Shown here: piece by piece, positions 41,727 to 45,422 of the stretch
Layout: each line of letters opens with the position of its first letter
How positions within the stretch are numbered: position 1 is the first letter of the stretch
DNA from: Promethearchaeota archaeon
GTDB lineage: Archaea; Asgardarchaeota; Lokiarchaeia; Sigyniarchaeales; SOKP01
Reading direction: 5' to 3'
Assembly (NCBI GenBank): GCA_048938895.1
Contig: JBHLLU010000029.1
Coordinates: forward strand, 1-52,183
DNA length: 52,183 nt
Translations under genes and position numbers: made by a program
The notes under the pieces: generated by a model
What the model was told of the DNA's origin: nothing
Databases searched by the model: none
What the model saw: the letters and a program-made list of their open reading frames with translations, nothing else

Positions 41727-41930
41727 CTACGTAGATCTGAATAACTTACTTTCTTCTAAGTTGTTTTCTTCTTTACAGTGAGGACAAATCCAAGTTTCAT
41801 CATTTTTTTTAACGGAATTAATGCAATCATGACAAATGGCAACATCACATATACAATAGTAACTATTTTCTATTGAACTTTCACAGCTTTTACCACAAAT
41901 ATAACATTTTGGTGGATGAATGTCTGACAT
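41727..41930 (-). CDS. Small C4C4 RING-like zinc finger protein
   Basis: CYIC-x13-CIC-x4-CHDC-x12-CPHC. Confidence 0.7.
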   Translation of the reverse strand: MSDIHPPKCYICGKSCESSIENSYYCICDVAICHDCINSVKKNDETWICPHCKEENNLEESKLFRST

Positions 41931-43292: not shown

Positions 43293-43460
43293 TTTTTTTA
43301 TTTCTAAATTTTAAATATATGTTAGATTTTGTTTTTAAAAATTTATTCTATAAAATCTTCTTTACTGGAATGTTTACACTTATACTTATTTACCATAAAA
43401 ATAATATATTTATTCTTTTATCTATTGCATAACTAAAAAACACACTATTAAATGATTCAA

Positions 43461-43622
43461 ATGTCTGAATGGAAAAATAGAATTCAAACATCCTTCTGTA
43501 ATGATGCCTATAAATCGGGTTGAGTTACAGTTGACCAAATAATAAACAGTATAAAAAAAATGCGTCTTAAAAGGCAGCTGAAAAAAAAAGAAAAACTAAA
43601 GCAAAAAAATCTCAAAGAATAG
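43461..43622 (+). CDS. Candidate small UGA-recoded protein (selenopeptide) 1
   Basis: MSEWKNRIQTSFCNDAYKSG-[TGA 43521]-VTVDQIINSIKKMRLKRQLKKKEKLKQKNLKE; alternative ATG at 43452. Confidence 0.55.
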
Positions 43623-43674
43623 CTTAATAAATGTTAGGAGCTCTTCTTAGAAATTCTGCAATGAATTGGAGATT
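43608..43674 (+). other. Conserved three-way-junction RNA element, copy 1
   Basis: AATCTC/GAGATT outer stem; 11-position hairpin with loop AATAAATGTTAG; AATTC-TGCAAT-GAATT hairpin. Confidence 0.7.
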
Positions 43675-43826
43675 AAACACATTTCTTATTTTATTACTTA
43701 TTCGAAATTTTATATTCATTTTTATAAAATATTTTATTCCTCTCCTAATTTTTTATCTTTTATAATCCTCATCCTTTAATCTCTCATTAGTTTAAAGTTA
43801 ATTAAATAATAATATGGTTTATTATA

Positions 43827-43961
43827 ATGGCTGAAGAAGAAGACTATCTCGATTTAGAATATGATGATGGTTGTTATGCAACAACTTGATCAATGGTAAA
43901 TATGTGGTACCAAAGAGCCCGTAAATTACACAAGTTAAAAGAAGAACTAGCTGAAAAATAA
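43827..43961 (+). CDS. Candidate small UGA-recoded protein (selenopeptide) 2
   Basis: MAEEEDYLDLEYDDGCYATT-[TGA 43887]-SMVNMWYQRARKLHKLKEELAEK; TATA-like element about 25 nt upstream. Confidence 0.6.
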
Positions 43962-43965
43962 AAAA

Positions 43966-44032
43966 TTATCTCAAGAAGCTAAATCATTAAATATTAGGAT
44001 TTAGTTTTAAGTTCTGCAAGAACAAGAGATAA
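43966..44032 (+). other. Conserved three-way-junction RNA element, copy 2
   Basis: TTATCTC/GAGATAA outer stem; 11-bp hairpin with loop ATTAAATATTAG; GTTC-TGCAA-GAAC hairpin. Confidence 0.7.
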
Positions 44033-44060
44033 AAAAGGTAGGTATTTTATTCAATTTTAA

Positions 44061-45422
44061 TTATTTTCTTGATCCTTCTCCTATTTTCCGATAAATAAAT
44101 CCTTTACTTTTAACAGTATTTTTATTAAAAATATTACGACCATCTATTATAATCGGTTTAGATCTCATTTTTTTCTTTAGATCATCAAGGTCAATTGAAT
44201 AATATTGTTTATGATTAGTAACAAATAAAAGAACATCAGAATTTTTCACAGCATAATCTAAATCTTCCGTTAATTCCGTTTTTTTATAATCCTTTTCTTT
44301 AACCCATGGATCATGAGCAATATATTCAATATTATGAGAATGGTATCTTTTTTTTAAGAAATTTACAATTCTTTCAGTTGGGGTATTTCTTGTATCATCG
44401 CAATCTGCCTTGTAAGCAACACCCATTAAAGAGATTTTCAAATTATCATGTTTATCTGCTTCTTTTAAGGTATCTTCCATCAATCCTACCATATGTTCTG
44501 GCATATAATCATTTAACTCTCTACCATACGGTAATAGTTTTACACGGTCGAGAAATCTCTTTGGTGTATAAGTTTCAAGACCATACATTAGCAACCATGG
44601 ATCTTTTGTTAAACAATGACCACCAACTCCACTACCGGGATAATGCATCATTCTATCATGTCTATAATTTATTAACTTGATGATCTCAAATACATTTCGA
44701 TCAAAATCTTCGGCTACCAATGCCATTTCGTTTGCAAAGGCAATGTTTACATCCCTATATGTATTCTCTATACATTTTGTCAATTCAGCAGTTAATGTAT
44801 CTGTAACCTGAAGCTGTTCTTTTACTACTTTCCCATAAAGAAATTTCGCATTTTCATTGGCCTTATCACATCCTCCCCCTATTACTCTTGGGAAATCCGT
44901 AATATATTCTAAAAGTTTACCGGGCATCACTCGCTCAAATGAAAATACAAGATAAAAATCTTCACCTCTTTTCATTCCACTTCCTTCTTCCAAAATTGGC
45001 TGTACAATGTTATCTGTAGTTCCTGGTGCTACTGTTGACTCAATAATTACCGTCACTCCTTTTTTCATTTTTGGTGCGATCAGATTTGAGACATCCTTTA
45101 ATGAATCATAAAGAGGAATTTTTCTAATTGGGTCAACAGGGGTCTGTACTCCAATCAAAATATAATCTGCTTCATTAATTTGCTCATAGCTATCAGTTAC
45201 TCTGAATTTTCCCTGCCCTACTATTCTTTCTATTAAATCATCTAGACCGGGCTCATCTCCCTCGAAAGGATTCTTTCCTTTATTAAGCCAATCGATTTTC
45301 CAGCCGGATCTTTTCGATCTTCGTTGGATTCCCGTAACATAAAAATCTGGAACATTTGCAAGCAGAGCACTCATTGGGATTCCAACATACCCCATCCCAA
45401 TATAAGTAATTTTAGTTGCCAT
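44061..45422 (-). CDS. Nucleotide-sugar dehydrogenase (UDP-ManNAc/GlcNAc dehydrogenase family)
   Basis: GMGYVG, ESTVAPGTT, KCIENTYRDVNIAFANE, GVGGHCL, DGRN. Confidence 0.92.
   Translation of the reverse strand: MATKITYIGMGYVGIPMSALLANVPDFYVTGIQRRSKRSGWKIDWLNKGKNPFEGDEPGLDDLIERIVGQGKFRVTDSYEQINEADYILIGVQTPVDPIRKIPLYDSLKDVSNLIAPKMKKGVTVIIESTVAPGTTDNIVQPILEEGSGMKRGEDFYLVFSFERVMPGKLLEYITDFPRVIGGGCDKANENAKFLYGKVVKEQLQVTDTLTAELTKCIENTYRDVNIAFANEMALVAEDFDRNVFEIIKLINYRHDRMMHYPGSGVGGHCLTKDPWLLMYGLETYTPKRFLDRVKLLPYGRELNDYMPEHMVGLMEDTLKEADKHDNLKISLMGVAYKADCDDTRNTPTERIVNFLKKRYHSHNIEYIAHDPWVKEKDYKKTELTEDLDYAVKNSDVLLFVTNHKQYYSIDLDDLKKKMRSKPIIIDGRNIFNKNTVKSKGFIYRKIGEGSRK

Follow-up and report, generated by a model that had tools for sequence, protein, structure and literature searches.

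A candidate SECIS element built on a three-way junction and two putative families of small selenoproteins in a Lokiarchaeia genome

The DNA analysed here (the window) is a stretch of 52,183 nucleotides (nt) from a Promethearchaeota archaeon of the Asgardarchaeota, class Lokiarchaeia (assembly GCA_048938895.1, contig JBHLLU010000029.1, positions 1 to 52,183). On its plus strand, two copies of an RNA element that folds as a three-way junction accompany the ends of two small open reading frames (ORFs), families A and B, each of which carries an in-frame TGA codon. These elements are probably noncanonical selenocysteine insertion sequence (SECIS) elements of a new architecture that lie in the 3' untranslated region (3' UTR) and serve two families of small selenoproteins. 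We infer the insertion of selenocysteine (Sec) at the TGA from comparative sequence analysis, in which nearly every copy of the element follows a homologous ORF with a conserved in-frame TGA, and the element is lost or decayed where the codon has become one for cysteine (Cys).

Asgard SECIS elements have been proposed to connect selenocysteine decoding in archaea with that in eukaryotes. A variant that keeps their apical loop but has a junction where they have the kink-turn would reveal what in the signal is indispensable, and it would offer a handle for identifying the archaeal SECIS-binding factor. Additionally, surveys of selenoproteins are based on homology and on core motifs, and the locus described here suggests that small lineage-specific selenoproteins escape them.

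Fold, covariation and distribution of the junction element

Copy 1 of the element spans positions 43609-43673 of the window. Its outer stem, ATCTC / GAGAT (43609-43613/43669-43673), encloses two hairpins. Hairpin 1 (43615-43648) pairs AAGAATAGCTT with GAGCTCTTCTT, with one U.C mismatch, and closes on the loop AATAAATGTTAG (43626-43637), and hairpin 2 (43652-43667) reads AATTC-TGCAAT-GAATT. Copy 2 spans 43968-44030, with its outer stem at 43968-43972/44026-44030, hairpin 1 at 43975-44008 (GAAGCTAAATC / GATTTAGTTTT, loop ATTAAATATTAG at 43986-43997) and hairpin 2 at 44011-44023 (GTTC-TGCAA-GAAC). A preliminary description of the window had proposed this two-copy architecture, and all of its sequence details were borne out: the three-way junction is both the minimum free energy (MFE) and the centroid structure of both plus-strand copies in RNAfold. 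The fold energy of copy 2 corresponds to z = -5.27, with none of 200 shuffled sequences folding as well. The minus strand of both copies folds worse than the plus strand because the G-U pairs turn into C.A.

A DNA search of 40 relatives determined that the locus is present across the genus. A covariance model was then built from 26 copies, two of them the window's own, and it scores copy 2 at 76.6 bits and copy 1 at 72.1 bits. In the remainder of the 4.65-Mb genome no further copy is found, the next best site scoring 22.2 bits (E = 1.6), and simple motif scans return only the two window copies. Within the taxonomic family the model has matches in 107 of 135 genomes, which represent 10 of 13 genera; there are one or two copies per genome (at most five), and they sit at the small-ORF loci on the same strand as the ORFs. 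Loci were fetched from 69 related Asgard genomes (130 kb in all), and these contain 111 copies at E <= 1e-6, i.e. 109 beyond the window's own, in 68 other genomes. The counts over 111 copies given below have this base, and the related genomes are not independent samples.

In 107 of the 111 copies the MFE structure of the individual sequence is an outer stem that encloses two hairpins. When the copies are aligned, 93.9% of the cells at paired positions are paired; both partners have changed in 15 of the 20 pairs, and compensatory changes affect hairpin 1 throughout (11 of 11 pairs). The observed covariation score is not reached in any of 500 shuffles, and pairing falls to 50-56% when the partners are slid by one column. 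A structure-blind MAFFT alignment submitted to RNAalifold recovers hairpin 1, with compensatory changes in 7 of 10 pairs. There are 87 distinct hairpin-1 stems and 64 distinct variants of hairpin 2, the outer pairs of which covary (e.g. GAGUUC/GAACUC, GAAUUC/GAAUUC and AGGUUC/GAACCU). The combination of conserved loops and covarying stems, which had first been read from the two window copies, therefore gains in strength in the larger alignment.

Other parts of the element are fixed in sequence. The outer stem AUCUC/GAGAU is near-invariant (UCUC/GAGA in 101/111), the junction strand is usually AA (80/111), hairpin 2 has the core UUC-NGCAA-GAA (GCAA in 77/111), and the loop of hairpin 1 is likewise fixed across the copies. 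Hairpin 1 consists of 10-11 mostly A-U pairs and carries a loop of 11 nt in 34 copies and of 12 nt in 75. The linker between hairpin 2 and the outer stem measures 0-1 nt in most copies.

The two window copies lie about 360 nt apart in a gene-plus-element unit that is present twice, an arrangement that would also be expected of a functionless mobile repeat, such as a miniature inverted-repeat transposable element (MITE), or of a recent tandem duplication. This explanation is effectively refuted. A dispersed repeat has many scattered copies without gene context, whereas there are two copies here and one to five in the relatives, all at the same locus and on the strand of the ORFs in 10 of 13 genera, with none elsewhere in the genome; moreover, the stems covary while the loops stay fixed. 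Nor does the element belong to a catalogued RNA family: Rfam 15 gives no match in the window at the gathering score, and a search at E <= 10 returns only noise (E > 2) in 43300-44200. A match in Rfam and a MITE-like spread were among the outcomes that the preliminary description had named beforehand as speaking against a functional RNA, possibly a noncanonical SECIS. Neither these nor the others that it named occurred, and its proposal is supported as far as comparative evidence reaches.

The element appears to be restricted to Asgard archaea. A pattern-based scan over 185,579 species genomes yielded 72 loci, of which the covariance model confirms 35, all of them in records labelled Asgard or 'uncultured archaeon', and none of the 37 bacterial or other loci. 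One genome (G006) has five copies of the element and three family B genes; two of these form a tandem with about 1 kb between them, and the third is at a separate locus near 2.13 Mb, which indicates recent duplication of the gene-plus-element unit.

Two small ORFs with a conserved in-frame TGA

The family A ORF (43461-43622, plus strand) encodes 53 amino acids (aa) followed by TAG when its TGA at 43521-43523 is read as Sec (U). The translation, MSEWKNRIQTSFCNDAYKSG-U-VTVDQIINSIKKMRLKRQLKKKEKLKQKNLKE, places the candidate Sec at residue 21 (MSEWK...FCNDAYKSG-U-VTVDQ...), and the 3' end of the ORF (five codons plus the TAG) runs into the outer stem and hairpin 1 of copy 1. The family B ORF (43827-43961, plus strand) encodes 44 aa followed by TAA. 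It begins MAEEEDYLDLEYDDGCYATT-U-SMVNMWYQRARKL... and reads MAEEEDYLDLEYDDGCYATT-U-SMVNMWYQRARKLHKLKEELAEK in full, and its TGA at 43887-43889 would again encode residue 21. With the TGA codons at these positions, the element starts given in the preliminary description (43608 and 43966) do lie 85 and 77 nt downstream of them.

Across the copies family A products measure about 50-57 aa, start with MSEWK... and contain a Cys-Sec motif C-x2-7-U, and one TGA stands at the aligned position in every credible family A match. Family B products measure about 44-51 aa, with the consensus ...DYLDLEFDDDCYSTS-U-GMLNMWYRRA... and the motif C-x4-U. The Cys-Sec spacing of family A varies: most members have C-x2-U, others C-x3, C-x4 or C-x7 (L054, L062, L071, L075 and L077), the window's copy being of the C-x7-U type, and such variation within one family is unusual for a redox motif. 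Family A homologues with the conserved TGA are found in 101 of 134 genomes of the taxonomic family, and the two families in about 100 of the 135 genomes searched in this one Asgard family; among 400 Asgard genomes there is no credible family A match outside it. A profile-to-profile alignment of A and B matches the Sec positions (probability 93.8%, E = 1.7e-7), which makes it probable that they arose as tandem paralogues through a duplication that included the element.

If the TGA simply terminated translation, a 20-residue peptide or nothing would be made, the junction would be an independent cis-regulatory or small noncoding RNA, and conservation downstream of the TGA would reflect constraint on that RNA. 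TGA is indeed a normal stop in this genome, where it ends 233 of 1956 long open frames, and gene callers would end both ORFs at the TGA, so that none would call them in full. The coding signal, however, does not stop there. Downstream of the TGA the ratio of nonsynonymous to synonymous changes (pN/pS) is 0.48 in frame for family A, against 0.95 and 0.71 off frame, and 0.26 in frame for family B, against 1.18 and 1.27 off frame. The synonymous bias is thus confined to the frame that runs through the TGA, which is the mark of purifying selection on a coding sequence that persists past this codon. Natural homologues read straight through with a Cys at the codon, and both families have C-x(n)-U motifs of the redox type. 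Re-initiation at the Met two codons after the family B TGA was ruled out because other genera and the Cys forms have Leu or Phe at this position. Termination is accordingly given a very low probability. Both ORFs show what is looked for in a selenoprotein gene, i.e. a conserved in-frame TGA with coding constraint on either side.

The association between the element and the TGA is close. For 108 of the 111 copies, a conserved in-frame TGA is found 70-112 nt upstream (81-93 nt for the most part) within a homologous small ORF, which answers the question raised in the preliminary description of whether matches to a covariance model would fall downstream of such ORFs. Eight of these ORFs were assigned by eye, owing to GTG or TTG starts, TGA as the real stop, the choice of frame or a longer tail. 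Of the three copies without such a TGA, one has N in place of its upstream sequence, one stands behind a Cys form and one is a decayed orphan. The stop codon of the ORF may fall inside the element, by up to 33 nt, or precede it by up to 23 nt; in most cases it is no more than 12 nt inside and no more than 20 nt ahead of the start. Among further loci from metagenomes, 18 of 18 have the TGA plus the element, one element being cut by the contig end, and none has a Cys.

The contrast between Sec and Cys forms comes from family B. A profile search for this family across 161 genomes of the class yields 66 credible genes, all of them from one taxonomic family; 62 have one TGA, and the four without it have TGT (Cys) at the aligned codon. 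All 62 TGA forms (46 examined in the fetched loci and 16 by comparing listed positions) have a covariance-model match that starts within about 15 nt of the stop codon. Downstream of three of the four Cys forms there is no element even at E <= 1 with filters off, and in the same loci the family A gene retains its TGA and its element. The fourth Cys form is followed by a copy of 51.7 bits in which the outer stem is mismatched and the loop of hairpin 2 altered, and for which the junction is not the MFE structure. In a further genome (G104), from which the family B gene is gone, a 44.9-bit relic persists with a broken outer stem and the UAG of the loop changed to UUG. The preliminary description, made from the window alone, did not include these Cys-for-Sec homologues without an intact element.

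Several individual loci may be mentioned here. Downstream of the Cys-form family B ORF in L055 and L057, a short stretch judged by eye to resemble hairpin 2 (..AAGTTCTATAAGATA..) may be the remnant of a deleted element. In G005 (locus L010:1553-1629) the family A ORF uses as its stop a TGA within hairpin 1, at a place occupied by TAG in other genomes, and the mRNA would carry a recoded TGA and then, 30-odd codons on, a terminating TGA within its own putative SECIS. A metagenome contig (L222:1001-1224) encodes a family B variant without the conserved Cys and Trp (..DDDYYGTT-U-TIIKRRNQ..) that retains the TGA and is followed by an element of 80.9 bits.

Neither peptide matches a Pfam family at E < 0.05. 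AlphaFold models of both products are helical and of moderate confidence, with predicted local distance difference test (pLDDT) values of 75.7 and 71.0; both show a long helix with a basic tail at its end, and Sec falls at or inside the first two turns of that helix. A redox-type Cys...Sec motif at a helix start is also a feature of small CxxU selenoproteins from bacteria and eukaryotes (Rdx/SelW-like and others). Unlike these, the products of families A and B are far too short for a thioredoxin fold at 44-57 aa, have no Pfam match and are found only in one Asgard family among the 400 genomes searched. A thiol/selenol redox role for them is a guess from the motif.

Relation to known SECIS elements and a proposed decoding mechanism

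The genome encodes the machinery for Sec, including tRNA-Sec, SepSecS, a SelB-like factor (TIGR00475) and two SelD genes with one TGA each. The machinery is clustered outside the window on contig C51 at about 99.6-107.2 kb, with the SelB-like gene at 99651-100760 and SepSecS at 105886-107184; a tRNA-Sec was reported by aragorn at 105615-105707, and its coordinates fit C51, the contig being unnamed in the output. The SelD genes stand in tandem at C140:31987-34167. The profile PF21131 (EFSec domain 4) gave no match anywhere, control genomes included, and was uninformative; TIGR00475 was used instead. Additionally, there are four FlpD/VhuD genes with two TGA codons each (C43:3192-3560, C33:51915-52283, C33:122850-123215 and C115:14715-15083). 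A canonical lokiSECIS lies within about 30-80 nt after three of them, and the C115 gene was missed by the strict pattern. In this genome the canonical lokiSECIS consists of AUGA, a 9-bp stem with the 11-nt loop AAAAAUNNUAG, the other strand of the stem and then GA/AA. The host is a Sec-using Loki-type Asgard archaeon in which the published form of SECIS serves the known selenoproteins.

The available text of PMC4989117, and also that of PMC11227280, gives as hallmarks of the lokiSECIS an AUGA before a 9-bp stem, an 11-nt loop in which A is favoured in the first five bases, an ultraconserved final G that is usually preceded by A, and GA/AA after the stem. Hairpin 1 of the junction element shares the loop. 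Its consensus is N(2-3)-AAA-U-NN-UAG, and AAA-U-NN-UAG is also the consensus of the genome's canonical lokiSECIS loops, a likeness that goes beyond the preliminary description. When positions are counted from the 3' end of the loop, AAA at -9 to -7 is found in 111/111 of these elements and 9/9 of the canonical loops, U at -6 in 90/111 and 7/9, U at -3 in 107/111 and 8/9, A at -2 in 106/111 and 9/9, and G at -1 in 111/111 and 9/9, the nine canonical loops having been picked by a regular expression that already required an A-rich start and a final G. The junction element thus has the loop of Asgard and eukaryote-type SECIS elements (about 11 nt, 5' adenines, a final G after A) and their position in the 3' UTR near the end of a gene with an in-frame UGA.

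Like the lokiSECIS and the Asgard eSECIS-like element (PMC4989117; PMC11227280), the junction element lies in the 3' UTR near the end of a putative selenoprotein coding sequence and presents a long hairpin whose 11-12 nt apical loop is A-rich on the 5' side and ends in (U)AG. Unlike them, it has no AUGA...GA/AA kink-turn core and no simple lower helix. In their place stands a three-way junction with the outer stem AUCUC/GAGAU, a junction strand that is usually AA and a second hairpin with an NGCAA loop, and the element serves two small gene families only. An AUGA does occur inside hairpin 2 of window copy 1, where it is not conserved. Reading the junction itself as a kink-turn or k-junction was rejected, as the tandem G.A positions are Watson-Crick or G-U paired and inspection of the alignment found no GA conserved after hairpin 1.

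Other SECIS types are more distant. In eukaryotic type II SECIS and the Loki SPS SECIS there is also more than one helix beyond the main stem along with conserved unpaired adenines, but the extra mini-stem of type II is apical, inside the loop, while the second hairpin here is basal, at the site of the kink-turn. The bacterial SECIS is a hairpin in the coding region immediately 3' of the UGA, in contrast to an element 70-112 nt further on and mostly past the stop codon. The SECIS of methanogens (Methanococcus type) has, in the available text of PMC11881835, a GAA_A kink-turn-like motif with two invariant adenines. Like this euryarchaeal form, the junction element lies in an archaeal 3' UTR, and its two highly conserved 5'-side adenines between a lower and an upper helix (AA in 80/111) may correspond to the invariant pair. 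The junction element differs in that a paired C, and not a G, precedes the AA, and in that a conserved single A on the 3' side and an apical G-C clamp are absent; the short apical stem of consecutive G-C pairs is replaced by a long A/U-rich upper helix, and a hairpin is inserted on the 3' side. PMC11881835 also reports that a methanogen reporter does not accept a SECIS from a lokiarchaeon.

The following mechanism is proposed. With a ribosome at the UGA, 70-112 nt (about 85) upstream, the element would lie outside the ribosome and be folded. Hairpin 1 would present the same apical loop as the organism's canonical lokiSECIS, and this loop would be read by the same factor, recruiting the Sec-specific elongation factor (SelB/EFSec) with Sec-tRNASec either directly or via an adaptor. 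The three-way junction would stand in for the AUGA/GA kink-turn as the device that sets the bend. With a linker of 0-1 nt in most copies, the outer stem and hairpin 2 probably form one stack, from which hairpin 1 would project sideways. The 10-11 stacked pairs from junction to loop would correspond to the 9 Watson-Crick pairs plus two sheared G.A pairs of the canonical form, so that the distance from bend to loop would be kept. Contacts may be made through the junction strand, usually AA, and through the conserved NGCAA loop of hairpin 2.

Several points weigh against the interpretation of these elements as SECIS. The AUGA/GA kink-turn core is absent, as had been noted for the two window copies, and no such motif flanks hairpin 1 anywhere in the 111-copy alignment. 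The likeness of the loops is a resemblance that supports the interpretation and does not prove it; beyond the way in which the canonical set was picked, a descriptor of a 9-bp stem plus loop gives 38 matches in the genome and 59 in a reversed-sequence control, and because the descriptor is so unspecific we claim no statistical significance for the likeness. The fold energy of copy 1 by itself is unremarkable (z = -1.34, with 23 of 200 shuffles as good). The 111-row alignment was fitted to the structure of the model, and the structure-blind alignment recovered hairpin 1 only, not the outer stem or hairpin 2. The four Cys forms amount to about two independent events since the three clean losses are in close relatives and the other is in one further genome, and a Cys form of family A is absent among the 400 Asgard genomes. 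Finally, a phyletic test has no discriminating power, as 130 of the family's 135 genomes have SepSecS.

Some of these points are shared by an explanation in which the UGA is read as Sec and the junction performs another task in the 3' UTR, such as 3'-end formation, stability or selenium-responsive regulation, with Sec insertion directed otherwise or by no dedicated element. The element lies directly before T-rich tracts at the end of tiny transcription units, it lacks the kink-turn core of all described Asgard SECIS, and the loop likeness alone is not statistically specific. A stability or terminator element should, however, survive a change from Sec to Cys, and the junction element is lost or decayed in 4/4 Cys forms and kept in 62/62 TGA forms. 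There is also no other conserved structure near the ORFs, and a relaxed pattern for the canonical lokiSECIS finds none near the elements in the 69 loci (130 kb), its sole match being spurious and on the opposite strand. The loop, moreover, has the published hallmarks of the lokiSECIS. We regard this alternative as unlikely though not negligible, and prefer the reading of the junction as a SECIS.

With respect to novelty, the available text of PMC11227280 and PMC13188914 lists SelD, FrhA/VhuU, HdrA, FrhD/VhuD, Prx-like, AhpF-N-like and DsbA-like proteins as the Asgard selenoprotein families, and that of PMC4989117 and PMC11227280 describes only core-bearing Asgard SECIS with the AUGA_GA kink-turn. 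A literature search found no junction-type SECIS and no small C-x(n)-U selenoproteins of Asgard archaea in the texts available, to which the supplementary tables (PMC11227280 S3-S5 and PMC4989117 S4) may add. The junction-type form of SECIS and the two small selenoprotein families are thus candidates for being new. It is conceivable that the junction even constitutes a fourth structural class of SECIS, in which no kink-turn is needed, although we lean slightly against this. If it does, the Asgard Sec machinery mainly reads an apical AAA...UAG loop at a fixed distance from a bend, and the bend can come from either a kink-turn or a three-way junction. The locus would also contribute two mini-selenoproteins (44-57 aa) specific to archaea, which have gone unnoticed in all homology-based selenoproteome surveys.

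Surroundings of the locus

The genome that holds the window comprises 4.65 Mb in 174 contigs with 31% G+C. Both small plus-strand ORFs and both elements lie in an intergenic gap (43293-44060) between two minus-strand genes, and each element is directly followed by a T-rich tract at the end of its tiny transcription unit. One of the flanking genes encodes a 228-aa membrane protein with no Pfam family and the other a protein of the UDP-glucose/GDP-mannose dehydrogenase family; these two neighbours give no clue to the function of the small peptides. A search for RNA runs that cover the locus found none. Elsewhere in the window, a 67-aa Cys-rich ORF on the minus strand (41727-41930) has a sub-threshold match to zf-RING_4 (RING/U-box-like zinc-binding), at 23.3 bits against a cut-off of 27.

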